Positions 2-35,696 of a DNA stretch of 64,000 nt are shown piece after piece. Each line of letters begins with the position of its first letter. The stretch's first letter is position 1. The translations under genes were made by a program, and so were the position numbers. The stretch is taken from NCBI GenBank assembly GCA_038062295.1, contig JBBTXL010000008.1, positions 1,430 to 65,429 on the forward strand. The letters are read 5' to 3'. The notes under the pieces are model-generated. The model was not told the DNA's origin and ran no database searches. It worked only from the letters and a program-made list of their open reading frames with translations. This DNA comes from Patescibacteria group bacterium. Its GTDB lineage: Bacteria > Patescibacteriota > Minisyncoccia > GWC2-36-17 > WO2-46-25.

Positions 2-1963
2 GTCAATACGGGCGCACTGACGATCTCGGTTGACCCGGCGTCTCCGACGGGCAATGTTGCAAAAGACTACATTGACCAGGAAATGGCGCGGTTCAAATTT
101 AAGGCATCGGGCGAAGGTGTGAAAGTATCTTCGTTGGCGGTTACCGCCACTACCGTTCCGGCGGCCTGGGGTGTGAACAACGTCAAGCTGTACTTGGATG
201 GCACACAGGTTGGCTCCACGAGCGATGTAAGCTCAGGAACGACCACGACATTCACGTTCGGTAACTCCTTCATTGTTCCTTCCGGCACGACCAAGACCTT
301 GGTTGTGAAGGGTGAAGTGAAGGCGGTCAGTGGTAGCTCGTATGCGGCAGGACACACGATCCAACTCATATTGAGTGCCGGTTCCGCGAACGCTCAGGGA
401 CAGGTTTCCTTGACGTCTATCAGCACGACTGCATCGAGCGGCAATACGCTGACGGTGCAGACAGGTACGTTGACGGCAACGCTGAACTCCGGCTTGAACA
501 ACGCAAGCTCCTCGCTCCCGACAGGTGTGCGGGGTGCAACGGCCGTGAAGATCGGTTCGTTCATTCTGACAGCCGGTTCGGGTGAGGCAGTGTCCGTAAG
601 CCAGATGGTGGTGAAGAACAGCGACGCGATTTACGCGTTGGGTGTTGACTTCCAGAACCTGAAGCTTATGAACGGCGCGAACCAAATCGGTAACCAGATC
701 GGTACGCTCTCAACGACCGCAAGCGCGACCTATACCTTTACGCCGTCCTCATCGATCACCATCAATGCAGGACAGCAGTATGTGGTGGATGTGTTTGCGG
801 ATGTCTTGACAGGCGCATCCAACTACTCGGGCGGCACAGGATACCCTTCAGCAGGTCTTTCCCAGGTTATCTGGGATGACGTGACGGCAACGGGTCTCTC
901 AACAAGCGGCTCCGCAGGGGTTACAACTGACGTTACCGGCCAAACGGTGTATGTTTCCGCGGGTGGTTCCTTGACGGTTGCAGCGGCGTCCGACATGCCG
1001 ATCGCGCAGAACCGCGCGATGGGTGAAACGGGCCAGACACTCGCAACATTCAAGTTCACCACGGGAGCTCCCGAAGCGGTGAACATCACGAAGATCATTG
1101 TGAGCGACACTATGGCGAGTACCGCATCTGCGGCGACCGGTTCCATCACGAACCTCTCGCTGTGGAAAGATGGCATACAAGTTGGCCCGACCGTAGCGTC
1201 TATGACGGCTAGCGGCACGCAGGATGTCATTGCGACATTCAACGGCTTGACGCTGAACTTGACGAGAGACACGGCAACCATTTTGACCCTGAAAGGCAAT
1301 ATCAACGGCTATCCGAACGCAGTGTCGGGCAGTACGCATACCTTCAAGGTGTATGGTCCGGCTGATGTAACGGCAACCGGCGCAACCGGCGGTAGCTCCA
1401 TTACCCCGACCATCGCGTCGGTGGCAGGGAATGCCCAGCGCGTCTTCCGCGCAGAGCTGACGGTGACCAACGCCATGTCCAACATGTCGGGTGGCCAGGG
1501 AACCGACCAGGTGATCGGCAAGTACCGCTTGACCAACACCTCGGCGGGGAACTACTCCATTACAGTGACCGACATTGACCTTGGTTTGACCACATCGATT
1601 GCTAACACCGAATCCGCCACAGCATCTCGGTATGTGACACTAAAGCGTGATTCCGCAAGCGGTACGACCATTGCAAAGAAAGCGTACAAAAATGCGAATT
1701 ACGGTGATATCACCAGCTGGACACCTGTTGGAACATACGACTTCACTGAACTTGCATTTGGTGCAACCACCATTGATGCTGCAGGTGGCACGGGATACGT
1801 AGATATCTATGTGCTTGCCGATACCAATGATGCGGATGCAACAGAGAGCATCTCTACGGCCATCGGTTCTGGCAGCAATGTTATCACATGGGCTGACGGC
1901 ATAACGGGCGGCATTACCACCGTTGACGGTATGCCGGTACCGGGCGCGAACATCACCTACTAA
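2..1963 (+). CDS. Thr/Ser/Gly-rich repetitive secreted surface protein, 5-prime partial (frame open to window edge); C-terminal ~480 aa paralogous to C-terminus of 18566..21523
   Basis: ORF track 83..1963; same frame has no stop codon back to nt 2; internal ~100-aa repeats (e.g. ...ITNLSLWKDGIQVGPT / ...VKLYLDGTQVGST); both paralogs end ...PGA(N/T)ITY; terminator hairpin follows. Confidence 0.8.
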   Translation, partial: VNTGALTISVDPASPTGNVAKDYIDQEMARFKFKASGEGVKVSSLAVTATTVPAAWGVNNVKLYLDGTQVGSTSDVSSGTTTTFTFGNSFIVPSGTTKTLVVKGEVKAVSGSSYAAGHTIQLILSAGSANAQGQVSLTSISTTASSGNTLTVQTGTLTATLNSGLNNASSSLPTGVRGATAVKIGSFILTAGSGEAVSVSQMVVKNSDAIYALGVDFQNLKLMNGANQIGNQIGTLSTTASATYTFTPSSSITINAGQQYVVDVFADVLTGASNYSGGTGYPSAGLSQVIWDDVTATGLSTSGSAGVTTDVTGQTVYVSAGGSLTVAAASDMPIAQNRAMGETGQTLATFKFTTGAPEAVNITKIIVSDTMASTASAATGSITNLSLWKDGIQVGPTVASMTASGTQDVIATFNGLTLNLTRDTATILTLKGNINGYPNAVSGSTHTFKVYGPADVTATGATGGSSITPTIASVAGNAQRVFRAELTVTNAMSNMSGGQGTDQVIGKYRLTNTSAGNYSITVTDIDLGLTTSIANTESATASRYVTLKRDSASGTTIAKKAYKNANYGDITSWTPVGTYDFTELAFGATTIDAAGGTGYVDIYVLADTNDADATESISTAIGSGSNVITWADGITGGITTVDGMPVPGANITY

Positions 1964-2006
1964 GGACTCAACCAGTTTGCTGCTTGTGACAGCGTAACTG
2001 AAGAAC

Positions 2007-2050
2007 CAAAAGCCCCAATGCTTTTAAGCAACGGGGCTTTTGGTTTTGTT
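2007..2050 (+). terminator. rho-independent terminator after surface-protein gene
   Basis: aaaaGCCCCaatgcttttaagcaacGGGGCttttggttttgttt: GC stem plus T-run. Confidence 0.5.
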
Positions 2051-2092
2051 TGTCTCGGAAAGTGGGACAAGCCATCAAGCCCGTAACGAATT

Positions 2093-4519
2093 ATGCATTT
2101 CTCGGACGATCGGATTAAAAATGCAAATAAAGTATCACGGCAACAGGATACGGGCAATTGTTTTTGGCGTTTGGTATGGTATAGTAGCGCAGTGATGATG
2201 CGTGAACATACTTTGGTAGGAATTATCAAATATGGCGTATACGCCGCTTTGTTTTTGCCGCTTGCGGTGCTCCCGTTATTTTTCTTCCCGTTTGCTACCA
2301 CGCGAGCGTTCGGGTTCCAGATTATCGTAGAGGTAGTGTTTGCGCTTTACATACTGCTTGCGGTGCGCAACTCCGTGTATCGCCCGAAAAAGACGCTCGT
2401 GTGGTATGCGCTCGAGGTTTATTTTTTCGTACTTACTGTTTCCACCCTGTTGAGTGTTGACATCTATCATAGTTTTTTCGGGAACTTTGAACGGATGTGG
2501 GGGCTGTTTTCACTACTGCATTTCCTACTATTTTTTGTGGTGCTGGTTGGCATATTCCGCACACGCGAAGAATGGGCGACATTACTGAAAGTCGCGCTCG
2601 CTGGGGGAGCGTTTGCGGTTGCGATCGGGCTGTTCCAGTTTTTTATGGCTCTCTTTTTTGCGGAGGGTGAGATCGCGCGCATTGCGGGGCCGATCGGCAA
2701 CCCCGCATTTTTCGCGGCGTATCTGTTGTTCCCGATGCTGTTTTCACTACTGTTCGTTCCAAGATGGATTTTACGAGGGACTACCGTTGCCGCGGCGGCG
2801 CTTTCGTTCCTTGCGCTGTGCACTGTTTTGTTGACGGCAACGCGCGGGGCGCTCCTCGCCATCGCGAGTGCCGTACTTGCGGGCACCACTCTTGCGCTCG
2901 TGCTGGTGCGCAACAACATCGCGCGCATCGGCGCGGGCATAGTATTGGTTGCGGCCGTTGCCGGCGCCGGCTCGCTGTTTGCATTCGGCTCGCTGTTTGA
3001 AAAGCCGGAGCGCCAGCCGCTCGAAGCGTATTTCCATGTTCCCGATGCAAGCGCCGCGGCACCAGCCGCACGCACGGGATTTCTCCAGCGCCTTGCGGAC
3101 TTTTCGCTTTATGACGCAACGACCCAGACACGTCTCATCACCTGGCGGTCGTCCCTGGATGCGTGGAAAGAATATCCGTTGTTCGGCGCGGGGCCGGAAA
3201 ATTTTATTCTTTCGTTCAACCGGAATTTTGACCCGGCGTTTTATTCCTCCGAACAGTATGAAATATGGTTTGACCGCTCGCACAACCAGTATATAGACAC
3301 GCTAGTTATGACGGGTGCGATCGGGCTCGCGGCGTACTTGTTTCTATTTATCGCGTGTGCACGGGCGGTGTTTTCGCTGTATCGCCAGCGGGCATTGGAT
3401 ATCCGGCATGTGTTCGTGTTTACGCTCTTTTTTGTGGCGTATGCCGCGCAGGATTTTTTCCTATTTGACTCGTTCGCACCGTTTCTGATGTTTTTGGTTG
3501 CTCTCGCATACCTGAATAGTTTTGTTCCCGAAGTGAAGGAAGGCGTTGCGGCGCCCGCGTTTACCCCGTCAAAAATACCAGGCATCGCCTTGCAGTCTGT
3601 TGCCGTAGCACTCGTGCCGGTGTTGTTCCTGTCATATTTCTTTACGTACCGGCCCGCAATGGCGGCGTACGGGCTTTCACAAGCCGAAAGCGGGAAATAC
3701 TCGCTTGATGCGGCGCTCGGCTTATATGATCGGGCGCTTTCCTGGAAAACATACGGGGATTTTGAAGTGAGGAGCCGTCTTGCGCTTGCCGTTGCGCGCG
3801 AAGTACAGGGGAAAAGGGAAGAAGAACTGTCTCCCGAGCGCGCCACGGCGTATCTGGATGCCGGTATTGCCGCGCTCAAGGAAAATATCGACCGCTCGCC
3901 CAAGGAGTATCTTCTGTATCGGTTACAGCTTTCGGATCTGTATAATCTTAAACTTTCGCGCACCGGCTTGGCGTCTCCTGAAATAGAGGATATTGTCCGG
4001 GAGTCTATCGCGCTTGCTCCCGGGCGCATGGAATTTGAATTCGCGCTCGCGCAGACGGAATTCTTGAAAGGAAACTTTACGGAAGCCATTGCTTTACTGG
4101 AACAAGCGTCGGTAAAAAATCCCGAACACCCCATCCCGTACTGGAAGATAGCGCAGAATTACTACTTCGCGTCTCAAGCCGAAAGCGACCCGGAAAAAAA
4201 AGCGGCAGTACGTGCGCAAGGAGTCCCATATTTTGAGAAAGCGTTGTGGCTCGGATATGATGTGCGGAATTACCAGGAGGTGCTGTGGGCGATGGAGTAT
4301 TACAACGACCGTAAAGACTACGAAAAGATCATGTATCTCAACAAGCTAGTATTGTCGCGCAATCCGCCGGACGCGTATTCCTACCATATGAACCTGGCTA
4401 TTGCGTACAAAGAACTTGGTATGAATACGCAGGCACGCGAGCATGCGCACGCAGTGGGGGAGTTGGAACCGTCCCTCCGGGAAGCTGTGGATAATTTTCT
4501 AAAAGAATTATCGCTATGA
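2093..4519 (+). CDS. O-antigen ligase-like (Wzy_C family) polytopic membrane protein with C-terminal TPR-like repeats, paralog 1 of 3 (true start may be the MMREHTLVG Met near 2195)
   Basis: many TM helices; motif RLITWRSSLDAWKEYPLFGAGPENF ... FDRSHNQYIDTL typical of the Wzy_C/O-antigen ligase loop; C-terminal soluble helical repeat region. Confidence 0.75.
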   Translation: MHFSDDRIKNANKVSRQQDTGNCFWRLVWYSSAVMMREHTLVGIIKYGVYAALFLPLAVLPLFFFPFATTRAFGFQIIVEVVFALYILLAVRNSVYRPKKTLVWYALEVYFFVLTVSTLLSVDIYHSFFGNFERMWGLFSLLHFLLFFVVLVGIFRTREEWATLLKVALAGGAFAVAIGLFQFFMALFFAEGEIARIAGPIGNPAFFAAYLLFPMLFSLLFVPRWILRGTTVAAAALSFLALCTVLLTATRGALLAIASAVLAGTTLALVLVRNNIARIGAGIVLVAAVAGAGSLFAFGSLFEKPERQPLEAYFHVPDASAAAPAARTGFLQRLADFSLYDATTQTRLITWRSSLDAWKEYPLFGAGPENFILSFNRNFDPAFYSSEQYEIWFDRSHNQYIDTLVMTGAIGLAAYLFLFIACARAVFSLYRQRALDIRHVFVFTLFFVAYAAQDFFLFDSFAPFLMFLVALAYLNSFVPEVKEGVAAPAFTPSKIPGIALQSVAVALVPVLFLSYFFTYRPAMAAYGLSQAESGKYSLDAALGLYDRALSWKTYGDFEVRSRLALAVAREVQGKREEELSPERATAYLDAGIAALKENIDRSPKEYLLYRLQLSDLYNLKLSRTGLASPEIEDIVRESIALAPGRMEFEFALAQTEFLKGNFTEAIALLEQASVKNPEHPIPYWKIAQNYYFASQAESDPEKKAAVRAQGVPYFEKALWLGYDVRNYQEVLWAMEYYNDRKDYEKIMYLNKLVLSRNPPDAYSYHMNLAIAYKELGMNTQAREHAHAVGELEPSLREAVDNFLKELSL

Positions 4520-6573
4520 TGCAGGGCGATATTATTCGGTCGTCCATGTTCTACCTTACGTGCGCGGCACTCATCACGCCGCTCGTATTTTCGGTATACT
4601 TCTACCCGACGCACGTCGCGCTCCAGACATTTCTCTTTCGCGGCATCGTGGACGTGATGCTCGCGCTGTGGCTTATCGGCATGGCGCGCGACCGGAGTTT
4701 TGTGCCGACGTTTTCATTGCCGGCGCTTGGCGTTGCTGTGTTCGTGTGTGCCGAATACGCGGCTGCCGCATTCGGGACGGGGTTTTCGCGTAGTTTTTTT
4801 TCTGACTACGAACGACACTGGGGACTGCTAACCATTTCGCATTTTGCCATATTCTTTTTCATTCTGGCGTCGGTATTTCGCGACGGGGTGACATGGCGGC
4901 GACTGTTTGCCGTGTCTGTTGGTGCTGGCGTTCTATGCGCTGCGTACGGTTTGTATCAGTTTTTTTTCACTCCCGATATCGGGCGCATTTATGGTACTAT
5001 CGGGAATCCGGCTTTTTTCTCTTCGTATTTGGTACTCAACGGGCTCGTCGCCATTTTTCTGTGTGTGACGGCGGCAAGCAGGAATGAAAAATTTTTGTGG
5101 GGCGCGGCCGCGATTTTTATCGTGGGTATCGCAATGCTTTCAGGGACTCGCGCGGCCTTCCTTGCCGTGTTGGTTGCGGCGGTGTTCGTGTGGGCGGGGT
5201 TTCTGTGGGGTAGTGCCGCATCACGCCGTGCGAAGCTTGTGACCGCCGGTGCGGGCGTGCTTGCGGCGGCTGCGGTCGGCGCGTTGTTCCTGTTCAATAA
5301 TGCGCCCTGGATAACAGGCAACGAGACGCTCGCGCGTCTCACCCATATTTCTGCGGCACAGGTGACGGGACAGACGCGTTTCTATGCGTGGCGCGCGACA
5401 TGGGATGGTTTCAAAGAACATCCGGTGCTTGGCGTCGGGCCCGAATATTTTGATACGGTGTTCAACAAACATTTCTCATCGGATTTTTACGCACTGGAAC
5501 GGTCGGAAACAGAATTTGACCGTGCGCACAATGTGTTCCTGGAGCAGTTGGCAACCGCAGGAGTGGTCGGCGCGGCTGCCTATGCATTCCTATTTCTGGC
5601 ATTTCTCGCGGCGTTGGTACATGCGGTTCGGCAGGGAACCGCGTCGCGTTTCGGCATGGCGGGGCTTTTGGCGGTTGCTGTTGCGTATTTAGTGCAGGGA
5701 ATGTTCAGCTTTGATTCATTTACAAACTTTCTGCCGCTGTTTTTGGTGTTTGCATATGCGGCCATACTGACACAACGTCCGGCGGGTGAGCGTGAAGCGG
5801 GCGCTCCGTCCGGCGGTGCGGTTATCGGGGCGGTATGCGTTGCCGCGGCGCTTTTGGTTTGGTACGGGAGCGTTCAGCCGGCGCGCGCCGACCGCGCATT
5901 ATCGGATCTCAACGCGGTGCGGGATACCCAAATGGAACTTGATGAAACAACGGCGGTGTCCGCGGCGATGGCCGCCCACAGCGCCGCTCTGGCGCATGAC
6001 AGACAGAGCGCTTCGGTGGCGACACCGCTGTTGGAACGGATCACGCGCGAGGCGTATCTGTACTTTGGCAGGAGCGCGCCGGACGACTTTGAGACAAATC
6101 TTCTGCCGTACGCGCTCCGTCAGGCCGCGGAGAATGTCCGCGCGCATCCGGAAGATTATTTCGCTTCCTACGATCTGGCGCTTGCGCATAACATCGCGTA
6201 TTTGGTCGCCGGCACAAACGATGCCGCTCTCGCCGCGACCGTTGCCCGCGCCGAAACGCTTGCTCCCGGCCGCGTGGAGCTGCAGTTTGCGTCCGCGCAG
6301 CGCTCGCTGCTGCAGTTGCGTTTTGACGACGCTATCGCACACGCGCAGAAGGGTATTGTCACCACTGCATGGTTCCCCGATTTTTACCATATCCTATTTT
6401 TAGCGTATAATTTCAAAGGGGATACGGACCGGGCGTTTGCCGCGGCGGAGAATGGCCTGGCGCATGGTATGCACCTTGCCGACCCGCGCGAGCTACTGTG
6501 GATGGCCGACCAATACCAGCGCCGCGGCATACTCGACAAAGCGGAAGCGTTTCGCATACAAGCAGGACAGTAA
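4516..6573 (+). CDS. O-antigen ligase-like (Wzy_C) membrane protein with C-terminal TPR-like domain, paralog 2
   Basis: ATGA overlap with upstream gene; motifs RFYAWRATWDGFKEHPVLGVGPEYF and FDRAHNVFLEQLATAG; polytopic N-terminal half. Confidence 0.75.
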   Translation: MMQGDIIRSSMFYLTCAALITPLVFSVYFYPTHVALQTFLFRGIVDVMLALWLIGMARDRSFVPTFSLPALGVAVFVCAEYAAAAFGTGFSRSFFSDYERHWGLLTISHFAIFFFILASVFRDGVTWRRLFAVSVGAGVLCAAYGLYQFFFTPDIGRIYGTIGNPAFFSSYLVLNGLVAIFLCVTAASRNEKFLWGAAAIFIVGIAMLSGTRAAFLAVLVAAVFVWAGFLWGSAASRRAKLVTAGAGVLAAAAVGALFLFNNAPWITGNETLARLTHISAAQVTGQTRFYAWRATWDGFKEHPVLGVGPEYFDTVFNKHFSSDFYALERSETEFDRAHNVFLEQLATAGVVGAAAYAFLFLAFLAALVHAVRQGTASRFGMAGLLAVAVAYLVQGMFSFDSFTNFLPLFLVFAYAAILTQRPAGEREAGAPSGGAVIGAVCVAAALLVWYGSVQPARADRALSDLNAVRDTQMELDETTAVSAAMAAHSAALAHDRQSASVATPLLERITREAYLYFGRSAPDDFETNLLPYALRQAAENVRAHPEDYFASYDLALAHNIAYLVAGTNDAALAATVARAETLAPGRVELQFASAQRSLLQLRFDDAIAHAQKGIVTTAWFPDFYHILFLAYNFKGDTDRAFAAAENGLAHGMHLADPRELLWMADQYQRRGILDKAEAFRIQAGQ

Positions 6574-6588
6574 TATCGTGAATATACC

Positions 6589-8739
6589 ATGACCAAGGAC
6601 AACGCACTTTCTTTCTATCTTCGGGCGACAAAATTTTTCATTGGGCTTTCGCTGTTTTCTCCGCTCGTATTGTCGGCCCTTTTTTATTTTCCCTACATCG
6701 TTCCCAAAACCATATTTTTTCAGGTTGCCGTCGAGCTGGCGCTGTTGTTGTGGGCGCTCCTGTGCGTGCTGGATGAAAAGTACCGTCCGAAATTCGACCG
6801 CATTGCCGTTGCCGTGAGCGCGTTCTTTGCCATATACGTCATTGCCGCGCTTTTGGGCGCAAACCCGCTACGGAGTTTTTTGGGAACGTACGAGCGGATG
6901 CTGTCGGTGGTGAATCTCGCGCATTTTATCGCACTGTTCTTCATTGCCCGCGCTGTCTTTGGTACGCCGCGGGAGTGGCTCATACTCCTCCGAACGTTTG
7001 TTGCGGTGAGTGTTGTGGTCAGTGTGTACGCGGTGGCACAGAAACTGGGGTGGGGGTCCTTGGTGTACCATGCGGGTATTGACCGGTTAGATTCCACCAT
7101 CGGGAACGCCGCATTCGTGGGGGGGTATCTTATCTTTGCTATTTTTTTTGCAGTGTTCCTCTTGGTGCGGGATGCGCACACGGCGATGCGCACGCTGTAC
7201 GCCGGTTGCATCGTTTTGAACCTCGCCATTCTGTATTTCACCGGTACGCGCGGCGCGGTGCTGGGTATGGCATGCGCGGTCGTGGTTTTGGTTGTGGGAT
7301 ACCTGTTCCGTCCCCGGACCGTCCCCGGTCTTTCCGCGCGGATGCTGGGGTGGGGGATGGGTGTATTATTCCTTGCAGGTGCGGTGGCGCTGGTTATCGG
7401 CGGAGGCGCGGAGAACGGTGCGCTTTCGTATCTCAAGCGATTCACCTCGGTTTCGCTTGCAGATACCACAGTGCAGACCCGTCTCCTTTCCGTGCAAACG
7501 AGCATGGCGGGATTTAAAGAGCGGCCGGTTCTCGGATGGGGGCCGGAAAACTACAATCTCGTGTTTGACAAGTATTATAACCCCAAGCTGTATCCGACGG
7601 AAAACTGGTTTGACCACGCGCATAACATCGTGTTTGACATCGTGACCACCACAGGCGTTGTCGGCGCGGCGGCATACCTATTTCTCATGTTCGTACTGCT
7701 GGCGGCCTGCATACGGCACGCGCGCGCAGGACCGGAATCGTACTGGCTCGGGGTGTTCGCGCTTGGGCTGCTGGCGGCGTACGGCGCCCAGAATTTGTTC
7801 GTGTTCGACAGTCTGGTGACCTACCTGCCGTTCTTTCTGTTTGCGGCGTTTGCCGCGAATGGTTTTCCGCTCGGACGCGATGCGCAGCTTTCCGACCGAC
7901 CGGAACGCGCAAAGCAATTTGCGAACCCCTCGGCGAAAGCCGCGCTCGCCCTGGTGCCGCTCGCCATGCTTCTTATTTATATGGTGAACGTGCGTCCCGC
8001 GGTCGCCGCGTACTACGCGGTTGTCGGGCTGACGACGAATCCCGCGCATGCCGACGACGCGATGAATTATTTTAAAAGATCCCTCGCATGGGGGAATTTC
8101 GGGGCGCACGAGATCCGCGGCAAGCTTGCGACATACGTGAGTGACCTCCTCGATAATACGCAGATGACCGATGAAGCGGCAAAAGGACGTCTTGCAACAT
8201 TTGTCGTCGCGGAAATGGAGAAAAATATCACCGAACAGCCGCTGGACTTCAGGAATTATTTATACTACGCAAGCTTTCTGAACGACTATGCCGAAGCACT
8301 CGCCTCGTACGGTGTTGCGGACCCCCTGGCGCGTGCCGACGAGGTATTGGCGGTAGCGCAGAAGTTAGGGCCGCACAAGCCCATTCTGCATCTTCAGTGG
8401 GCACAGGTGAAGGTTGCGCGGGGCGATGTTGCGGGTGCGGCACAACTCATGGAAGAAGCCGCAGTACTCCGTCCGGACATGGCGGAGTTCCCGTTGCGCG
8501 CTGGAGGTATGTTCCAGCAAGTAGGGGAGCGTGAAAAGGCTATGGCGTTTTTCAAGGATGTCAAAGAGAGGTTTGGCACGCAGTTGACAGCACAGCAGTT
8601 TGTGCAGCTTGCGGTCGGTTTGGCGAACGGCGGGGACAAAGAAGGGGCGATACAGGCCGCAAAAAAAGCGGTGGAGCTGGACCGGAATCTCTCGGCGGGT
8701 TACGAAGAGTTTGTTCGGAAAGTGAAGGAGATGCCATAG
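6589..8739 (+). CDS. O-antigen ligase-like (Wzy_C) membrane protein with C-terminal TPR-like domain, paralog 3
   Basis: motifs RLLSVQTSMAGFKERPVLGWGPENY and FDHAHNIVFDIVTTTG; same architecture as the two upstream genes. Confidence 0.8.
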   Translation: MTKDNALSFYLRATKFFIGLSLFSPLVLSALFYFPYIVPKTIFFQVAVELALLLWALLCVLDEKYRPKFDRIAVAVSAFFAIYVIAALLGANPLRSFLGTYERMLSVVNLAHFIALFFIARAVFGTPREWLILLRTFVAVSVVVSVYAVAQKLGWGSLVYHAGIDRLDSTIGNAAFVGGYLIFAIFFAVFLLVRDAHTAMRTLYAGCIVLNLAILYFTGTRGAVLGMACAVVVLVVGYLFRPRTVPGLSARMLGWGMGVLFLAGAVALVIGGGAENGALSYLKRFTSVSLADTTVQTRLLSVQTSMAGFKERPVLGWGPENYNLVFDKYYNPKLYPTENWFDHAHNIVFDIVTTTGVVGAAAYLFLMFVLLAACIRHARAGPESYWLGVFALGLLAAYGAQNLFVFDSLVTYLPFFLFAAFAANGFPLGRDAQLSDRPERAKQFANPSAKAALALVPLAMLLIYMVNVRPAVAAYYAVVGLTTNPAHADDAMNYFKRSLAWGNFGAHEIRGKLATYVSDLLDNTQMTDEAAKGRLATFVVAEMEKNITEQPLDFRNYLYYASFLNDYAEALASYGVADPLARADEVLAVAQKLGPHKPILHLQWAQVKVARGDVAGAAQLMEEAAVLRPDMAEFPLRAGGMFQQVGEREKAMAFFKDVKERFGTQLTAQQFVQLAVGLANGGDKEGAIQAAKKAVELDRNLSAGYEEFVRKVKEMP

Positions 8740-8770: not shown

Positions 8771-9970
8771 ATGGCACTATCACCGGGAGAATCCGAGGTC
8801 ATATATAACACCATGAAACGGCGGCAAATGGTCGTGTGGTTTTTTCTGCTTGGCGTGGTCGGGCTTGGTATTGCCGTCGTCATGTATATTATATATCAGG
8901 TTATTGCGGGCGCCGGGGGAGGGACATCGCCGGGCGCCGGCACCGTTTCATCCCCACTTGCCGCGCCGTTGTCCGCTACCTCACCTCCCGCGGCTTCGCA
9001 GGCCGACGACCGGTATGTGTTGTACGGCGCGTTTTTTCCGGAAGACCAGCGGTATAAGATCTTCAAAGTATATTACCGGCAGTTCATACGGGAAGAAGTT
9101 TTTTCATTTCCATGGAAGAATGCCGCGGTCGCGCCGGGCATGGCGGCATACGGGGAACGCATTGGCATATTTCCGGCGCGGGATCGCGGATACTTTATTC
9201 GTCATGATGGCAGCAGGGAGGATATAAGCGTTTTTGTGCCGCCGGATGAACATGCCGCGCTTTCTCCCGACGGCAGCATGATGTTTTATTTCAAGTATCT
9301 CTCGTCTATCGGCAATCCGGCGCTTGCGATGCGCAGCATGGCGCAGGGAGAGGATGCGTATGTCTGGTCACCCACTGCGGCGGCATCCGCGTTGTGTGAA
9401 TTTGCGGGATGGTCTCCCGATGGCGCGAACGCATATTGCATCGCCCGCGAGGGCGGCACCGCAACCGTGCGCGCGTTTTCGGTCGCCAACCACACTGCAG
9501 CGGTTGTCGCGTCGGCGCGCGATGTCCGGGACGCTCGCTACTATCCGGCGTCCGGTTCTTTTGTCGTTGCGGCGAATGACAGGGTAAGCGTGACGGATAC
9601 GCAAACAAAGGAGGCACAAGAAGTTGTCCGCGCCCCGGAAGGGTTTTCCGTTGTGAATGCATTCCTTGCGCTCGACGGTTCGCGCGTGGTGTATACGGTC
9701 ATGTCATTGGACGGTGTTGCCGGACAGGTGAGAACGGTTTCTTCCGACGGTTTTGACGACCGTGTTCTTACCACCGGACACGGTACACGCGCCGTGTCCG
9801 TGTCTGGAGACGGAAGCATGGTGTTGTTCGAAGAAGATGACCGTACGAATGTGGCGCTGAAACATTATTTCATATCGGATGTTGAAAAGTTCTCGCCCCG
9901 CGAGCTGTACGCCGTTGACGCAACCGCACAGGATGCGCGATTTTTAGGGTGGTTTTCCACCCCGAAATAG
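8771..9970 (+). CDS. membrane-anchored protein with PD40/TolB-like beta-propeller repeats (likely start at Met 8813, MKRRQMVVWFFLLGVVGL)
   Basis: N-terminal TM helix; repeated SPDGS / WSPDGA / LDGSRVVY / SGDGSMVLF motifs typical of PD40 repeats. Confidence 0.6.
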   Translation: MALSPGESEVIYNTMKRRQMVVWFFLLGVVGLGIAVVMYIIYQVIAGAGGGTSPGAGTVSSPLAAPLSATSPPAASQADDRYVLYGAFFPEDQRYKIFKVYYRQFIREEVFSFPWKNAAVAPGMAAYGERIGIFPARDRGYFIRHDGSREDISVFVPPDEHAALSPDGSMMFYFKYLSSIGNPALAMRSMAQGEDAYVWSPTAAASALCEFAGWSPDGANAYCIAREGGTATVRAFSVANHTAAVVASARDVRDARYYPASGSFVVAANDRVSVTDTQTKEAQEVVRAPEGFSVVNAFLALDGSRVVYTVMSLDGVAGQVRTVSSDGFDDRVLTTGHGTRAVSVSGDGSMVLFEEDDRTNVALKHYFISDVEKFSPRELYAVDATAQDARFLGWFSTPK

Positions 9971-13152: not shown

Positions 13153-13224
13153 TCCGGGGTAGCGCAGCGGTAGCGCAGGCGACTGTTAATCGCTTGGTCG
13201 TGGGTTCGAATCCCACCCCCGGAG
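13153..13224 (+). tRNA. tRNA-Asn (anticodon GTT); no encoded CCA
   Basis: hand-folded cloverleaf: acceptor TCCGGGG/CCCCGGA, D-stem GCGC/GCGC, anticodon stem GGCGA/TCGCT with loop CTGTTAA, T-arm GTGGG-TTCGAAT-CCCAC. Confidence 0.85.
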
Positions 13225-14811
13225 CAACATAGGATTTTGAGAGTATAAATCGCTCATATCTGTATTAACCAAGCAATTTTTGAGAGGTTCTAACCTTTCG
13301 TACATCGCTTTTACCTCATGAGAGGCCTCTTTGATGAGTATGAGCGGTTTTTCTAGTGAGACATTGAGTATTCTGTCTTTTAGCGTGAGGTTCGAACCCA
13401 GAAACATGAGGATACCTTTTTTCACTTCAAGTGAGTCTGTTGTGTCAAAAGTTTTCTTTGCGGTCCGAGCAAACTCAAAATATTTTTCTGCTTGTTCAAG
13501 CCAATCATCTGCTCGTTGCCCAGTATCATCCATCAACATTTCTACGTGATGTTTTTCTTCTAAAAAAGCTGTTTTATTTTTCGCAAACTCCTCATCTGTT
13601 ATATCTCCACCCGCCCGCATACCAATAAGGTTATCAAGCTTTTTAAGCACCTTATCATACTCTTTTCGCTGACTACTGATTATTTGCGTTCTGCCGTGAG
13701 CTTCAACGACATTATTGCTTTTCAGCACATCCAGCGCCCACTCGCAAAAGTCATTAGGCAACTCAATTTCACCTAGAGTGCGGGAGATCTGTTTTTGCAG
13801 TCCCGTCTCTTCAATCGAGCTTTGTGAGCAGTCCGGATTTCTCCTTTTTGTGCAGTGATAGTAGGTGTAGAAATGCACATTGCCATTCTTTTGTCTTTTC
13901 ACTTTAGATTCAGCTGTTATCAAAGCGCCGCATTCTCCGCACATAATCGGACCACGAAAAGCAAAGTCATATTTCTTGGGTCGTGTTGTTGCCTTATTGC
14001 CAAGCAATACTTGTACCCGGTCAAACTCCTGTCTGGTGATCATCGGGGGATGGCCTCCTGTTTTCCAATTACCGCTTCCTCTTGGATATTCAAAATCACC
14101 ATAGTAGAAAGTATCATTTAAAATTCTATACACCGTACTCCGAGCTATCTTCTTGCCTTGTCTGCTTGTAAGATTCCACTCATCTCGTACAATTTGCCAC
14201 ACCTTATTTACCGTATGCCTACCCGTAAGCATAAGCTCAAACATCTTGCGGACCAAATCAAATCGCTCCGGATCCCTCAATATCTCTTTCTCTCCTTTCT
14301 TTTTCAACGGATTGTGCATATAGCCAAGCGTGGCATAGGTTGGATACCACCCTCTTTCCATTTTTGCTCTCAACCCTCGTTTGGTATCCACGCTCAAATC
14401 ACGGATAAACTGATTCGCCATGCCAAGCTCTACCGCCATCATAATCACATTATCTGCCGGGTAATAGCTTCGCCCGTATGTTTGAATGTGTTGGATTGCC
14501 CCTTGTTGCAACATCCAGCTTATCTGGCCGCCGTCAATTGGGTTACGAGCGAGGCGGTTGAGCTTCCAGCAAATAATCCCTTGAGCTTCACCTTTAAGGA
14601 TTCGCTCAAGCATCTTGTTGAAGATCTCTCTGCCGGGCCCCTTTGCGGACTTTGACTCAGTAAAAGTATCCACCACGTTTAATCCATGCTCTTCCGCCAG
14701 TCGTTTAAGCTCGGTGATTTGAGCATCAATGGATGCCATTTGCCGGTCCTCGCTTTCCGATGATTTCCGAGCATAGATGAAGTATTTGATTTTTGCTTTT
14801 TGTTCGTTCAT
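13186..14811 (-). CDS. large serine recombinase (integrase) of the integrated element; 3-prime end of ORF runs into the tRNA-Asn sequence; likely start MNEQKAK at 14811
   Basis: resolvase-type catalytic N-domain YARKSSESEDRQMASIDAQ; recombinase domain; zinc ribbon CGECGALITAESKVKRQKNGNVHFYTYYHC; C-terminal coiled-coil. Confidence 0.85.
   Translation of the reverse strand: MNEQKAKIKYFIYARKSSESEDRQMASIDAQITELKRLAEEHGLNVVDTFTESKSAKGPGREIFNKMLERILKGEAQGIICWKLNRLARNPIDGGQISWMLQQGAIQHIQTYGRSYYPADNVIMMAVELGMANQFIRDLSVDTKRGLRAKMERGWYPTYATLGYMHNPLKKKGEKEILRDPERFDLVRKMFELMLTGRHTVNKVWQIVRDEWNLTSRQGKKIARSTVYRILNDTFYYGDFEYPRGSGNWKTGGHPPMITRQEFDRVQVLLGNKATTRPKKYDFAFRGPIMCGECGALITAESKVKRQKNGNVHFYTYYHCTKRRNPDCSQSSIEETGLQKQISRTLGEIELPNDFCEWALDVLKSNNVVEAHGRTQIISSQRKEYDKVLKKLDNLIGMRAGGDITDEEFAKNKTAFLEEKHHVEMLMDDTGQRADDWLEQAEKYFEFARTAKKTFDTTDSLEVKKGILMFLGSNLTLKDRILNVSLEKPLILIKEASHEVKAMYERLEPLKNCLVNTDMSDLYSQNPMLLRGWDSNPRPSD
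13208..13223 (+). repeat. direct repeat copy 1 (tRNA-Asn 3-prime end, putative att core)
   Basis: GAATCCCACCCCCGGA, identical to 23601..23616. Confidence 0.6.
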
Positions 14812-14935
14812 ATAATCAAAAAGGGATAACCCCGTTGGACACAATCACCCTTGCGAGTTTTTGTAGGCGGAGTTACCCCTCTTTAAATGCAAAAAATCGC
14901 AAATCCCAGTAATTGTGTCCATGTTTATCATACCA

Positions 14936-15601
14936 CTACTTTTGCTTTACAGCAAACCGACCAAACCGCTTATTCAGCCGTGCGGCCATCATAATAAAAC
15001 CGGTCTCAAACTTCTCATTCAGCCGTATTACTCGTCTGTATTTTCTGGTTGGCTTACCCTTGTAATAATATCGCTTAACCTCTTTCTCTGCTTTTTCTAT
15101 GTCAGGGATTGATACAAACCCCTTGTATTTACCACCCTGCATTTGGGAGGCATAAGTAATTCCTCCACAGTGTCGGCAACCGAACCATTTGCCAATGCTG
15201 TAAATCACTCCAACTCTCCGCCCGCAGTATTGCCCATTTTTAGACAGGGGGCATATAAACCAGTATCGCACACCGCCATAATTGCAAGGAGTCATAGTAA
15301 GTTCAATCTTATAATCCATTTCTTCTTTTTCGCTGTTCCATCTGTCTGTATGAGTATAATATAACCTTGCATACGCTCTCTCATCCGGAGTGCCCCAATT
15401 ATCTCTGCTTACAGCAAACCCGATACTACTTTTATTCTCGCTATAGCCGTAAGTCCAAGTAATGCCACCAGATCGATGACTATAATCCTTGTGCAGATAG
15501 CCATGCTTTTTAAGCCAGAAGATACCTAAGCTGTTATTCTGTTCTGCTACACTTTTAGACATAAGCTTTTTCAATCTGCCGAAATCATTAAAGATGAGCA
15601 T
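14936..15601 (-). CDS. hypothetical Cys-rich (zinc-ribbon-like) protein, element-encoded
   Basis: ORF track; CNYGGVRYWFICP...CGRRVGVIYSIGKWFGCRHCGG cysteine pattern; AT-rich codon usage matching element. Confidence 0.5.
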   Translation of the reverse strand: MLIFNDFGRLKKLMSKSVAEQNNSLGIFWLKKHGYLHKDYSHRSGGITWTYGYSENKSSIGFAVSRDNWGTPDERAYARLYYTHTDRWNSEKEEMDYKIELTMTPCNYGGVRYWFICPLSKNGQYCGRRVGVIYSIGKWFGCRHCGGITYASQMQGGKYKGFVSIPDIEKAEKEVKRYYYKGKPTRKYRRVIRLNEKFETGFIMMAARLNKRFGRFAVKQK

Positions 15602-15787
15602 GGTCTTTAAACTTTAAAACCACCATTTTCATTCCCTCTTTGTTATTACTGTTATCATACTGCTTATCAGTATAAAATCCACCATTTCCCGCCATTTTTA
15701 TACAGATAATGTTTTCCATGTTTTTCCATGATATTTTATCTTGCACAACCCCCTCTTTATCAGGTCAATGAACTAAAGCGTATCGTC

Positions 15788-15888
15788 ATAGTTAACTGTT
15801 ACCTTATAGGAAATCTATCATGTAACATAATAGTACTATCATTAAGTTATTCTATATAGTTAACAATACTATAGATAATTAACTATAG
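15788..15888. promoter_or_regulatory. cluster of three ATAGTTAAC/TTAACTAT sites (two direct, one inverted) in intergenic region inside the element; candidate operator
   Basis: ATAGTTAAC at 15788..15796 and 15856..15864; inverted TTAACTAT at 15879..15886; flanked by palindromic CTATAG. Confidence 0.3.
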
Positions 15889-15890
15889 AG

Positions 15891-16217
15891 TCAGAGTGTT
15901 ATCTCTGGATCAATGCCAAGTCTCTTTCTGAAGTGTTCTTCACTTTGTTTGTAGTATTCCTCCCACACTTTCGTTTCTAACTGTTTCCAAAGCTCTTTAT
16001 CGGGAGCAAAGAAGATGGGGTGGTAACTGCCTCCGCCACCCTTGTACGATGGGGGAGTGAGCCATAATTTATCTCCTTTATAATTTGGATGCTGTGATTC
16101 CTGCACCCGGAAGCCCTTTACAACAAAATCTCCGAAATCAAGGGTGATAATCGCTTTTAATTTCTTCTCCTCGATAACTTTCACTTTCACGGTAATTTCA
16201 TCGATATTCATGGTCAT
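15891..16217 (-). CDS. SpoVG-like protein, element-encoded
   Basis: IDEITVKVKVIEEKKLKAIITLDFGDFVVKGFRVQESQH resembles the SpoVG N-terminal consensus (recalled from memory, not searched). Confidence 0.5.
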   Translation of the reverse strand: MTMNIDEITVKVKVIEEKKLKAIITLDFGDFVVKGFRVQESQHPNYKGDKLWLTPPSYKGGGGSYHPIFFAPDKELWKQLETKVWEEYYKQSEEHFRKRLGIDPEITL

Positions 16218-16269
16218 AGTAATATGGTGTTAGTTTATTAAATAAATGCGGTGGCGGGGCTATGCGAGC

Positions 16270-16497
16270 TTATTTTTGGTTGTCCCCGCGCATATTTGAG
16301 AGATGCCAGAGATGAGCCAAAATGCTTTTCTTGCTGGTTTTCTCATAATCCTCATTTTCGACGAGTTTGGAGAACCAGCGGTGTATCGTTTGTTTGCCAA
16401 ATCCTTCTCCTTTTAGCGCTTCAGCAAAACATGTGTAGGAACTCCAATATGGGTTTCTATCCCCAATGTTTTTGAACCGTCTTTCAAGTGATTTCAT
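16270..16497 (-). CDS. hypothetical small protein (element)
   Basis: ORF track only; same strand as neighbours. Confidence 0.3.
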   Translation of the reverse strand: MKSLERRFKNIGDRNPYWSSYTCFAEALKGEGFGKQTIHRWFSKLVENEDYEKTSKKSILAHLWHLSNMRGDNQK

Positions 16498-16509
16498 ATT
16501 TTTATCATG

Positions 16510-16737
16510 TTAGGTTTTGTTAAGTTTTTTATCCTTAGACGCGTAGTTACTTTTTAAGATTAGCTCTACGAATTCTGCCAACCTGATTCCTTTTACCAAT
16601 GCAGTTTCACGGTCCAATACCACGCCAAAATTCTTTCGGTAGATTTGAATGAAGGCATTGATTTGTTGATCCGTGATTCGCATCTTATTTATCGTGTAGT
16701 ATGTATCCTGCTTTTTAGTTCCCTTCTCGCATTCCAA
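16510..16737 (-). CDS. hypothetical small protein (element)
   Basis: ORF track only; overlaps alternative ORF 16689..16964. Confidence 0.3.
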   Translation of the reverse strand: MECEKGTKKQDTYYTINKMRITDQQINAFIQIYRKNFGVVLDRETALVKGIRLAEFVELILKSNYASKDKKLNKT

Positions 16738-16964
16738 AATCCCTTCGGTTCAACGGAAAGAGCGCCGGACCAGAATTGGCTTACGGCATTAGAAAGCTTT
16801 TCACTTTTCTTAAATACAAACCCGACCCTTGGGTGTTCTTTGGGGTCTCTGTTTATCGCCACAATAGGAAATTCCAGATATTGCAATGCTGAACACAGTG
16901 CTAGATCATAGAATTCTTCATGCTCCTCGCTGGGGAGGTACTTAAAATCATCTTTTTGTTTCAT
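16689..16964 (-). CDS. hypothetical small protein (element); overlaps previous call, only one may be real
   Basis: ORF track only. Confidence 0.25.
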   Translation of the reverse strand: MKQKDDFKYLPSEEHEEFYDLALCSALQYLEFPIVAINRDPKEHPRVGFVFKKSEKLSNAVSQFWSGALSVEPKGFWNARRELKSRIHTTR

Positions 16965-17017
16965 ATCATTTTTTTAGTTATTTTATTAATTGCGACCTTG
17001 ATGATTTTTTTAAAAAA

Positions 17018-17053
17018 TAAAAAAGTCATACTAATTACAGTATGACTTTTCTA
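17018..17053 (-). terminator. bidirectional intrinsic terminator (perfect 12-bp stem AAAAGTCATACT/AGTATGACTTTT) downstream of 17097..18035
   Basis: aaaaaataAAAAGTCATACTaattacAGTATGACTTTTctat; A-run on one side and T-run on the other. Confidence 0.5.
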
Positions 17054-17096
17054 TAAAATTTTGTTTGAATATTAGACTAAACCAGACTAAATCGGA

Positions 17097-18035
17097 CTAC
17101 TCTGGATTGTTTTTTATATGAGCAACCTCCAACTGCTTTAAAAATAGAGGTATTTTTACACCAATTTTTACTAAATCTTCTTTTGATATTTCGCCCCCAT
17201 TGTAAACCACCACAGACTTTCCTCTTTTAGGAAAGAAAGCTTTTAATATTTCGGCCTTAAAGCCAAGTTCATTAAGTATTTTTGTAAAGCTTTTATTCTT
17301 TCTTAGTGTATCAGGGATGTCTTGGTTTCTAATTTTTGTATTTTTTGGTTGCGAACGAACATATTCAAAAAATTCAAAGTTAATTCCTACAGCGTGTGGT
17401 TTTCCTATAAGGTATTCGTTAACCAGTATTTTTCGATCTTTAACTGAAATAACGAATTTTGATGGTTCTTGTTTTGTTTGTATTTCTTGAGCAGTTGATG
17501 GGTTAATTTTGAGCTTTTTATCAATCAAATCCTGCACTCGGCGCAATCCATCTAACGAACTTACTTTTAGAAAAACATAACTTTTCAACTCTTCTTTTGA
17601 TGGCAAATAATCGGGTAATTCATTTTCATCAAAAGCTGTAACGCTTGAAGGAAATACAACTCTTGTTCTCTGATACTCTTTTATTTGGTAGAGTAATTCT
17701 GCGTTTGTAACTTTGACACTGTCTACTCTATTCAGCACACCGCTTATATCGTCTGAATATACCTGCTCATTTTCAAACTTTTGTAAAGATATTTTGACCA
17801 CTTCTGTCAATCTATTAACGGGCTGAAGCTGTAAGAAATCAAGAGTAATCTTAATAACTTTTTGAGCAATTTTAAGATTTTCTTGAGTGAGTTTTTCCCA
17901 ATCAAAAATATCCGTATGTAAACTGGAGGGTTTTATCTTTTTCTCTCCATCTCTTTTGAAACCGTCCTCATAACGGCGAAACAGTTTATCAAACTTCGAC
18001 TGGACTATTTCTATGCGAAACAATTTATTACTCAT
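17097..18035 (-). CDS. hypothetical protein (element); start taken at MSNKLF with ATGAGTAA overlap of upstream stop
   Basis: ORF track 17097..18158; internal Met 42 forms overlapping stop/start with 18028..18261 ORF. Confidence 0.5.
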   Translation of the reverse strand: MSNKLFRIEIVQSKFDKLFRRYEDGFKRDGEKKIKPSSLHTDIFDWEKLTQENLKIAQKVIKITLDFLQLQPVNRLTEVVKISLQKFENEQVYSDDISGVLNRVDSVKVTNAELLYQIKEYQRTRVVFPSSVTAFDENELPDYLPSKEELKSYVFLKVSSLDGLRRVQDLIDKKLKINPSTAQEIQTKQEPSKFVISVKDRKILVNEYLIGKPHAVGINFEFFEYVRSQPKNTKIRNQDIPDTLRKNKSFTKILNELGFKAEILKAFFPKRGKSVVVYNGGEISKEDLVKIGVKIPLFLKQLEVAHIKNNPE

Positions 18036-18261
18036 ATTCCCATGTGCCACCTCTATTTTGTATTTTAATAGCACCCCATTCTTCCAGCTTCTCAAGTATT
18101 GCCGCCTTATCTGTGGCTGATGGAGAACTACCAGTGGTGTCAAAAAAACCAAAATCAACCCAATATAAAATTGGGTTGCCTTTTTTGGTATACAGCGACC
18201 TTTCCTTGATTTGTCTTAAAACATACCAGACATTCTGATTAAATTTTTCTTCTGGGGTCAT
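18028..18261 (-). CDS. hypothetical small protein (element)
   Basis: ORF track; translational coupling with downstream gene. Confidence 0.4.
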   Translation of the reverse strand: MTPEEKFNQNVWYVLRQIKERSLYTKKGNPILYWVDFGFFDTTGSSPSATDKAAILEKLEEWGAIKIQNRGGTWEYE

Positions 18262-18438
18262 AGTAATTTATGTTAATTTCATTGTAATTTACCTATATTC
18301 TACCATTTTTCAGCTATTTTTTCAACCTACTAAAACGTTGTGTATTTTTTGCAAATTTTAGTGGTTTATGGTATTTTATAAGCAATAATTAAGCATCGCC
18401 TAACCCTCGTGGTTTTACTACAAGGTATGGCAACAAAC

Positions 18439-18481
18439 ACGGTTCAGGTCATTAAGCTCCTAGTCAGAGCACCTGAACCGT
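18439..18481. promoter_or_regulatory. perfect 11-bp inverted repeat ACGGTTCAGGT...ACCTGAACCGT with 21-nt spacer in divergent intergenic region of the element
   Basis: seen directly; lies between the leftward operon and the rightward 18566 gene. Confidence 0.3.
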
Positions 18482-18565
18482 CATATCCGAAAGGGTATGG
18501 GTGTCGCAAGACATCGCTGGCTGGGAGCTTTGTGTCTATATTCCCACTAGCTTAGAATAATTACT

Positions 18566-21523: not shown

Positions 21524-21526
21524 ACC

Positions 21527-21778
21527 ATGAAAAAACTTATCGCCTCTACCGCATTTCTATTTTTATTCATAGCTCTGTTTTATTTTTCCAACCCGGCAGA
21601 AGCAGCCACAAGAACTAGAGGGTACTACAAACCAAGTACTGGTACTTATGTACAGCCGTATTACCGTTCCTCTTCGAACAGCTCAAGATGGGATAACTAT
21701 TCAACGCGAGGCAATTACAATCCCTACACGGGTAAAAAGGGTTATATCAGTCCTTACAAGAGTTATCGGTTTAGATAA
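21527..21778 (+). CDS. small secreted Tyr-rich protein (element)
   Basis: signal peptide MKKLIASTAFLFLFIALFYFSNPAEA then YYKPSTGTYVQPYYRSSS...NPYTGKKGYISPYKSY. Confidence 0.5.
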   Translation: MKKLIASTAFLFLFIALFYFSNPAEAATRTRGYYKPSTGTYVQPYYRSSSNSSRWDNYSTRGNYNPYTGKKGYISPYKSYRFR

Positions 21779-21780
21779 TT

Positions 21781-22131
21781 ATGATCAACAAACTCAACAA
21801 AGTTTTAATCTTATCATGGGCATTGCTTTTTTTAGCGATGCCTATTTTTGTCTCAGCCCATCGTTCCGGTTGTCATCGTTGGCACTCTTGCCCATCTGAT
21901 ACTGGTTCGTATGTCTGTGGTGATTTAGGGCATCCTTGCACGTACCCAACCTATCCCAAGTCTGGTGGTGTTATTTTGCCAGAGAGTGTTGCAACTTTAC
22001 CACAACAACCTCACAAGAAAACCAGTGAAACAGCAAGACAAAAACGGATCACCGTATTGAAAAAGCAGATTTCGGATTTGAGGTTAAAACTTCAGCAATT
22101 AGAGAGCCAACTCAAAGCGCTTGAACAATAA
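21781..22131 (+). CDS. small secreted Cys/His-rich protein with C-terminal coiled coil (element)
   Basis: signal peptide; HRSGCHRWHSCPSDTGSYVCGDLGHPC; C-terminal heptad-like KKQISDLRLKLQQLESQLKALEQ. Confidence 0.5.
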   Translation: MINKLNKVLILSWALLFLAMPIFVSAHRSGCHRWHSCPSDTGSYVCGDLGHPCTYPTYPKSGGVILPESVATLPQQPHKKTSETARQKRITVLKKQISDLRLKLQQLESQLKALEQ

Positions 22132-22212
22132 ATTAAATTGATGTAACAGATGAGTTCACCCGAGTCAAGATATTACGAGACTTTTAGCGGAGTTAGTTTT
22201 TAATCCAATAAT

Positions 22213-22386
22213 ATGGAAATAATAGGTTTAGGTCTAGTCATATTGGGACTTATTTGGACAGTAATCAGTTTTATTATCAAGGTTTTTGTCTATGCTGTTT
22301 ATTTTTTGCCATTTATTGGGTATAAGATATTAGATTTTTTAAGTTTATGGCCACACATTTGGCCACTTAACGGAGTTAGTTTTTAA
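22213..22386 (+). CDS. 57-aa small membrane protein (not in ORF track, below length cutoff)
   Basis: hand translation MEIIGLGLVILGLIWTVISFIIKVFVYAVYFLPFIGYKILDFLSLWPHIWPLNGVSF; ends inside a duplicated ~35-nt motif. Confidence 0.3.
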   Translation: MEIIGLGLVILGLIWTVISFIIKVFVYAVYFLPFIGYKILDFLSLWPHIWPLNGVSF

Positions 22387-22395
22387 CTTAATTAT

Positions 22396-22716
22396 ATGGG
22401 AAAATTTAAATTATCATTACCCATTACAATTTTATTAGCGAGTATTGTTTTAGGCGGCTTCTACTATGCGAGCGAAGCAAACAAACAAAAGTCTACTGAA
22501 AGACAACAGCGAGACGAACAGGTGGTCACCGAAAAAAACCTTTTCGACTTAAAATGGTGTTTAGCGACTGCAGAGGGTGATAGGAAGGATTTTCTAAGAT
22601 TAAACGGTCCTGATGGGCATATTGATGGCCGATATACTAATAATACAACTCTCATACAACAGGCTGAAAGACAAAAAAAGGAAGATGAGCAAAGGTGTTA
22701 TCAGTTATACAAATAA
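22396..22716 (+). CDS. small secreted protein (element)
   Basis: signal peptide MGKFKLSLPITILLASIVLGGFYYASEA; preceded by the duplicated ~35-nt motif. Confidence 0.45.
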   Translation: MGKFKLSLPITILLASIVLGGFYYASEANKQKSTERQQRDEQVVTEKNLFDLKWCLATAEGDRKDFLRLNGPDGHIDGRYTNNTTLIQQAERQKKEDEQRCYQLYK

Positions 22717-22852
22717 TTTATTTCAAAACCAAAAATGCAACCAGGACCTTGGATAGATGCAAACATCTTCGATCCTGATAGCAACGAATTTATTGATGAG
22801 GGGCTGGATGAAGATGATGCTGTTGAATTTGCTGATGAGCTATAAATAGTGA

Positions 22853-23501: not shown

Positions 23502-23535
23502 TTTCAAAAACAGAAACTGCTTTCTGTTTTTGAAA
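23502..23535. repeat. perfect 15-bp inverted repeat TTTCAAAAACAGAAA-ctgc-TTTCTGTTTTTGAAA ~70 nt inside the right direct repeat
   Basis: seen directly. Confidence 0.4.
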
Positions 23536-35692: not shown

Positions 35693-35696
35693 TATT

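Follow-up and report, generated by a model that had tools for sequence, protein, structure and literature searches.

Three tandem Wzy_C-TPR proteins encoded beside a Thr/Ser-rich surface protein in a Patescibacteria genome are candidate surface-protein O-oligosaccharyltransferases

Results

A Wzy_C-TPR gene array downstream of a surface-protein gene

The window analysed here, a stretch of 64,000 nt from a Patescibacteria metagenome-assembled genome (MAG; contig JBBTXL010000008.1), contains near its 5′ end a gene for a Thr/Ser-rich secreted surface protein, designated SP, followed by three consecutive genes, W1, W2 and W3, for polytopic proteins with a Wzy_C domain and a C-terminus related to tetratricopeptide repeats (TPR) (Table 1). 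A first-pass annotation, made from the sequence alone, had reported the three genes at these positions and proposed that they form a module for O-glycosylation of the surface protein; their products are currently annotated as "O-antigen ligase family protein". An NCBI protein from a Patescibacteria MAG has the same sequence as W3, whose closest relatives (50–55 % identity) are from Candidatus Azambacteria. The start of W2 overlaps the W1 stop by 4 nt. The true start of W1 is possibly near position 2195, because its ortholog in Azambacteria (53 % identity), likewise situated downstream of an SP ortholog, has 761 aa.

Table 1. Features of the W1–W3 locus, with coordinates in the window.
Feature	Coordinates	Strand	Remarks
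SP 3′ part (653 codons), Thr/Ser-rich secreted surface protein	2..1963	+	frame open from position 2
Terminator-like hairpin, 15-bp stem then U-run, between SP and W1	2002..2055 (approximate)	+	RNA folding
W1, 808 aa, Wzy_C (WaaL-fold) membrane domain and C-terminal TPR domain	2093..4519	+	
W2, 685 aa, Wzy_C membrane domain and degenerate TPR-like C-terminal domain	4516..6573	+	
W3, 716 aa, Wzy_C membrane domain (predicted 13 TM) and predicted external TPR domain (residues ~471–716)	6589..8739	+	
380–399-aa protein, one N-terminal TM segment, weak TolB-like beta-propeller signal	8771..9970	+	

Because the SP frame is already open where the window begins, the window edge cuts this gene. The complete gene, on contig CAYICE010000003.1, starts ca. 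1.5 kb upstream of the window and codes for 1147 aa; the surface protein reported directly upstream of W1 is indeed Thr/Ser-rich (Ser plus Thr, 23 %), but the reading frame first described is only a part of it. The deduced product has a signal peptide, a Thr/Pro linker and no Cys. In its AF2 model (pLDDT 84.9), a small N-terminal domain and the disordered Thr/Pro linker are followed by beta-sandwich modules arranged in a chain, although a self-BLAST did not find internal repeats at E < 1e-3. The family has more than 324 members throughout Patescibacteria; in most homologs the linker region has a high content of Thr, Pro, Ser, Ala and Gly, and some members contain the peptidoglycan-binding domain PG_binding_1. 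We do not designate SP as a surface-layer (S-layer) protein because the only matches of a fold search were generic chains of the Ig-like or macroglobulin-like type, none of them an S-layer protein.

The 129-nt spacer between SP and W1 (1964–2092) folds with −53.3 kcal/mol (z = −5.37), and none of 200 shuffled sequences was as stable. A scan for consensus terminators, with a loop limit of 8 nt, did not detect the hairpin, because its stem encloses more than 8 nt; it was found by direct folding. The hairpin and the U-run after SP indicate that W1–W3 are probably a transcription unit of their own.

Upstream of SP, locus L001 (4800–5591) contains a gene for a protein of ca. 235–263 aa, without a Pfam match, whose C-terminus reads like a putative DeoR-type winged helix. 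It has counterparts in L086 (6277–7059, by position only) and in L004 (3849–4556, 37.5 % identity), and in two of these lineages the gene is immediately upstream of the surface-protein gene, which its product may regulate. Directly upstream of the SP homologs of L087 (6584–7829), L088 (5917–7748) and L089 (6426–7793) there is a gene for an extracytoplasmic function (ECF) sigma factor followed by one for a small protein, which in L087 is DUF5667. In the window, an ECF sigma gene with a downstream open reading frame (ORF) of 116 aa (35096–36047) is situated far from SP.

The membrane domains belong to the WaaL side of the Wzy_C superfamily

All three proteins scored above the gathering threshold of Pfam Wzy_C (PF04932; 31.7 bits), with 69.4 bits for W1 (E = 3.9e-19), 75.7 for W2 (E = 4.2e-21) and 71.5 for W3 (range across the three, E 4e-19 to 4e-21), while sharing a pairwise identity of 28–31 %. 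They share the polytopic fold of WaaL-type ligases (GT-C(B) fold), in which transmembrane helix 9 (TM9) leads into a large external loop. The loop motifs quoted in the first-pass annotation were confirmed, and the Arg, Asp and His residues within them do not vary over 43 family members. R221, R298 and H345 of W3, at the predicted external face, are the candidate catalytic residues and were without exception conserved in sets of 43 and of 28 sequences.

A PDB search with the single W3 sequence retrieved TPR proteins only, so a family profile was needed to reach the structures of related enzymes. Using the membrane domain alone, this profile matched WaaL (7TPG, E = 2.5e-13) and, over ca. 255 positions, structure 9RMK (E = 2.3e-12), deposited as "Oligosaccharyltransferase". 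W3 residues R221, R298 and H345 aligned with R191, R265 and H313 of 7TPG, and H345 aligned with H349 of 9RMK. We take 9RMK to be Neisseria PglL, from its length and because the aligned His falls at residue 349, where N. meningitidis PglL has its catalytic His; a literature search found no publication on this structure. In WaaL and PglS, such Arg residues have been assigned to pyrophosphate binding and the corresponding His to the role of catalytic base (PMC12800693).

A profile comparison with hhalign gave a probability of 86 % over 310 columns with E. coli WaaL. Neither Wzy of E. coli O16 (WbbH, 0.5 %) nor the enterobacterial common antigen polymerase WzyE (0.2 %), two polymerases from among the highly diverse Wzy proteins, showed any similarity. 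The clustering with polysaccharide polymerases that would have counted against the first proposal was therefore not seen with these two. These results support the placement of W1–W3, by sequence, on the side of WaaL and the O-oligosaccharyltransferases (O-OTases), and unlike both polymerases compared. A label as IctB bicarbonate transporters (TIGR00947) was discarded, as the best score was 66.9 bits versus an NCBIfam cut-off of 366 bits.

Predicted topology and TPR domain

In 43 sequences, the predicted cytoplasmic short loops contained a mean of 13.0 Lys plus Arg versus 3.3 in the external ones. This bias predicts an N-in topology with 13 TM helices and, in answer to the topology check proposed in the first-pass annotation, a catalytic loop (TM9–TM10) facing outwards; the extra 13th helix would likewise leave the TPR domain outside the cell. 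The TPR assignment itself was sustained by a family TPR profile with E ~ 1e-109 and, in W3, by model helices at residues 485–714; matches in W1 were below threshold, and the C-terminus of W2 is degenerate (E = 0.22 at best versus consensus TPR). The TPRs of OGT rank among the best TPR matches, and there were weak matches to the polysaccharide-handling proteins PgaA, PrsT and BcsC.

Wzy_C-TPR genes are linked to genes for Ser/Thr-rich secreted proteins

A scan of reference genomes identified 551 relatives. Among the best 80, almost every one bears a Patescibacteria label; three are labelled Gammaproteobacteria or Lysobacteraceae, probably from mis-binned contigs. Linkage was evaluated in 83 non-redundant loci, counting as Ser/Thr-rich secreted proteins those with at least 20 % Ser plus Thr and a hydrophobic N-terminus. 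Of the 277 genes no more than two positions from a Wzy_C-TPR gene, 27 code for such proteins, compared with 9 of the 582 more distant genes of these loci (odds ratio 6.9, p = 9e-8). The enriched neighbours belong to four recurrent families: SP, with 27–44 % identity to the window SP and situated upstream of Wzy_C-TPR in L004, L007, L008, L070 and L013; an LTD/beta-helix family (five loci), of which tblastn found no homolog in the window; and two families of small secreted proteins (eight and nine loci). An SP-family gene was present in all five multi-copy loci with enough flanking sequence versus 8 of 53 single-copy loci (p = 2.8e-4). The reverse test started from four distant SP homologs, picked arbitrarily from those on long contigs; for three of them a Wzy_C-TPR gene lies downstream, at a distance of one to three genes. 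In many Paceibacteria, the single-copy form is followed, within a few genes, by MurB (23 loci) and SecA (32 of the 83 loci); the window has these two genes side by side (57960–62292), but 50 kb from W1–W3.

The three paralogs are old

One Azambacteria genome contains a separate ortholog of each paralog (W1, 53 % identity; W2, 42 %, W695 of L002; W3, 51 %), indicating that the triplication is old. There, the W1 ortholog follows the SP ortholog, and those of W2 and W3 follow an LTD/beta-helix protein. Identity among the paralogs is highest in the catalytic loop (39–45 %) and lowest in the TPR domain (19–27 %). W1, W2 and W3 probably differ in acceptor or glycan specificity, as had been suggested; their age and the divergence of their TPRs fit distinct acceptor specificities, which is not the same as proving them. 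In a rough neighbour-joining tree, W1 and W2 fall in divergent, almost wholly SP-linked clades and W3 is nearer to the common single-copy form; we take this as a hint only, because the tree has long branches and lacks support values.

Glycan-synthesis genes near related loci

A census of Pfam domains in up to three genes on each side of the family members returned Bac_transf initiating transferases (11 upstream, 4 downstream), seven Wzx-type flippases, ABC transporters, glycosyltransferases GT1, GT2 and GT4, dehydratases, epimerases, DegT and NeuB. These are components of an undecaprenyl phosphate-linked glycan pathway. Glycan-synthesis genes also occur near the distant SP loci L087, L088 and L089; the combination of surface-protein gene, transferase and glycan-synthesis genes is full in L087 and L088 and partial in L089. 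The Azambacteria locus has a GalU-like gene only.

The glycan cluster of L087 contains genes for a 451-aa Wzy_C protein without TPR (1698–3053) and for a 735-aa Wzy_C-TPR protein, which suggests a division of tasks between a polymerase, the TPR-less protein, and a transferase.

Other features of the window

The gene downstream of W3 may belong to the W1–W3 operon. Only the Azambacteria locus has a homologue (37 % identity) in the equivalent place, ahead of DnaG, and the product (399 aa) was consequently rejected as a conserved partner of W1–W3. The rest of the window codes for housekeeping functions (DnaG, RpoD, ParB, Obg, SbcCD, GroEL, MurB and SecA) and includes a low-GC island at a tRNA-Asn gene (13153–13225), which is overlapped by the 3′ end of an ORF for a large serine recombinase (13186–14844, minus strand). 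Beyond this tRNA gene the GC content drops from ca. 0.56 to 0.36–0.41 for ca. 10 kb, and the region 13153–24500 is a probable integrated mobile element; it carries a gene for a 985-aa protein with a Trypsin_2 domain (18566–21523). Farther downstream (39607–45479), there are genes for two tandem VWA-domain proteins (432 and 448 aa), ORFs of 304 and 162 aa, an S26 signal-peptidase-like protein (43921–44469) and an ORF of 337 aa, which may constitute an operon for a secreted fibre with a dedicated signal peptidase. A 188-aa protein with a PaaX_M/Cas2-like domain is encoded at 48960–49526.

Discussion

We consider that W1–W3 are outward-acting, WaaL/PglL-type en bloc glycan transferases and, most likely, O-OTases of surface proteins, a reading that we hold with moderate confidence. 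A classical lipopolysaccharide (LPS) ligase role is unlikely, as had been suspected, since the host belongs to Patescibacteria, which are regarded as monoderm and devoid of LPS. The analysis shows which domains and fold these proteins have, which residues are conserved, what topology is predicted and how the genes are linked; the lipid donor, the protein acceptor, the recruiting role of the TPR domain and the division of labour among the paralogs are inferred. In the proposed mechanism, the glycan would be built on undecaprenyl phosphate in the cytoplasm and then flipped outwards. The external TM9–TM10 loop would transfer it, with R221 and R298 binding pyrophosphate and H345 acting as catalytic base, to Ser/Thr hydroxyls of Sec-exported surface proteins recruited by the external TPR domain. 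The prime candidate acceptor would be the neighbouring SP, perhaps at its disordered Thr/Pro linker.

Several observations weigh against this interpretation. The terminator-like hairpin that separates SP and W1 makes their co-transcription doubtful; the linkage itself is statistically supported and recurs in distant lineages. The expected glycosyltransferases and flippases were not found nearby: glycosyltransferases, initiating transferases and flippases are all absent from the 64-kb window, as are Wzx and Wzz, and in this genome the pathway genes must therefore lie elsewhere; a GalU-like nucleotidyltransferase is encoded a few genes upstream of SP on the same contig, outside the window. PglL_A and Wzy_C_2, typical Pfam domains of PglL-type enzymes, were absent from W1–W3 at E ≤ 0.01. 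TPR domains occur in polysaccharide-export proteins too, as the matches to PgaA, PrsT and BcsC illustrate. A general cell-wall role would fit equally well the single copy beside MurB and SecA in most Paceibacteria, and the gene linkage may in part reflect inherited synteny of related genomes.

The alternative that best withstands the evidence, which we nevertheless rate as unlikely, is that W1–W3 are ligases whose acceptor for the lipid-linked glycan is some component of the monoderm envelope other than a protein (for instance peptidoglycan, a glycolipid anchor or a secondary cell-wall polymer), with the TPR domain handling polysaccharide or docking on wall-synthesis proteins. Fold and catalytic residues would fit as well as with a protein acceptor, and the usual proximity of the widespread Paceibacteria single-copy form to MurB and SecA and the TPRs of polysaccharide-handling proteins agree with it. 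Likewise, the peptidoglycan-binding domains in some SP relatives mean that the linkage could reflect a shared wall context. Nevertheless, it explains neither the enrichment of Ser/Thr-rich secreted neighbours from four unrelated families nor why multi-copy loci track the SP family. We know of no Wzy_C-family enzyme that ligates glycans to peptidoglycan, a reaction carried out in monoderms by LCP enzymes.

It is improbable that W1–W3 are Wzy-type polymerases extending the undecaprenyl pyrophosphate-linked repeat unit of a capsule or cell-wall polysaccharide. Pfam Wzy_C does include polymerases, and neighbours of the family are often Wzx-type flippases and initiating transferases, but the family profile aligns with WaaL and 9RMK and is unlike WbbH and WzyE, the invariant His of the HN motif is a ligase/OTase signature, and no chain-length regulator was seen. 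Additionally, the separate TPR-less gene beside the TPR form in L087 suggests that polymerization is the task of the former. Pilin-specific O-OTases of the TfpO/PilO type, although they share the enzyme superfamily, adjoin the pilin gene in Pseudomonas and would have substrates in the type IV pilins common among Candidate Phyla Radiation (CPR) bacteria, were rejected as highly improbable: a six-frame search of the window found no prepilin motif, the conserved genes nearby code for large proteins of the beta-sandwich or beta-helix type, and just one of the 27 enriched neighbours (227 aa, in L083) has a prepilin-like N-terminus.

As surface-protein O-OTases, the best-supported reading, W1–W3 would be equivalent, in architecture and genomic setting, to WsfB of Paenibacillus alvei and WsaB of Geobacillus stearothermophilus, the predicted S-layer O-OTases of the slg clusters, whose hosts are also monoderm. 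The slg cluster of Geobacillus adjoins the S-layer gene; similarly, the related CPR loci L087–L089 combine surface-protein, transferase and glycan-synthesis genes. Both enzymes carry Wzy_C, WsfB with a C-terminal TPR motif and WsaB with a separate TPR protein, WsaA, encoded upstream (PMC2943079); the likeness to W1–W3 lies in this published architecture of Wzy_C plus TPR. Unlike the slg systems, there are here three ancient tandem paralogs, the window locus is next to SP but has no glycan-synthesis genes, and the neighbouring protein is a 1147-aa chain of beta-sandwiches.

Among the Gram-negative general and pilin O-OTases (PglL, PglS and TfpO), H349 of 9RMK is matched by the invariant His of the W family, and in both groups a 13th TM helix is followed by a C-terminal domain outside the cytoplasm, in the W family by prediction; the catalytic His and pyrophosphate-binding Arg were proposed for PglS by comparison with WaaL (PMC12800693). 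The W family differs from PglL-type enzymes in its lack of PglL_A and Wzy_C_2, its C-terminal TPR superhelix of ca. 250 aa and its monoderm CPR host. Identity to WaaL (Cupriavidus metallidurans, 7TPG/7TPJ; E. coli K-12) is ca. 19 %, and, unlike WaaL, the family has the additional 13th TM helix and the external TPR domain, and would lack a lipid A-core acceptor in a phylum regarded as without LPS. TPRs are also fused to glycosyltransferases in OGT, TMTC1–4 and other TPR-bearing membrane glycosyltransferases, where they are thought to recruit protein acceptors. Since the catalytic folds and donors of TMTC1–4 and OGT are unrelated to those of the W family, this is an analogy of architecture only.

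On a broader scale, we tentatively envisage, at a rather low probability, a conserved surface-glycosylation system of Patescibacteria in which ancient TPR-bearing paralogs of the WaaL fold would each be matched through their TPRs to one class of giant surface protein. The classes would be, just as speculatively, the SP beta-sandwich family, the LTD/beta-helix family and the two small secreted families. The enzymes would perhaps operate at or near the Sec translocon; action near it has been proposed for O-OTases in one published speculation (PMC12800693). Such a system would amount to an enzyme-to-substrate code for the glycan coat of the ultra-small episymbionts and would bear on how they attach to their hosts.

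Most Patescibacteria have yet to be cultured, they live on other cells, and their surface is almost uncharacterised; our literature searches on CPR or Patescibacteria together with O-antigen ligase, S-layer or glycosylation gave no relevant result. Both the class of enzyme and an arrangement of the S-layer type have precedents in Gram-positive bacteria, so W1–W3, as a predicted CPR counterpart of Gram-positive S-layer glycosylation, would extend known biology without adding a new mechanism. If correct, our interpretation would name a widespread family of wall-associated surface proteins of ca. 1100–1370 aa, now annotated as hypothetical, together with the enzymes that probably glycosylate them, and would correct the label "O-antigen ligase", which misleads in a phylum regarded as devoid of LPS. 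It would also provide a genomic rule, a Wzy_C-TPR gene beside that of a Ser/Thr-rich secreted protein, for predicting glycoproteins in Patescibacteria, and TPR-bearing O-OTases with possibly distinct acceptor specificities have potential interest for glycoengineering.
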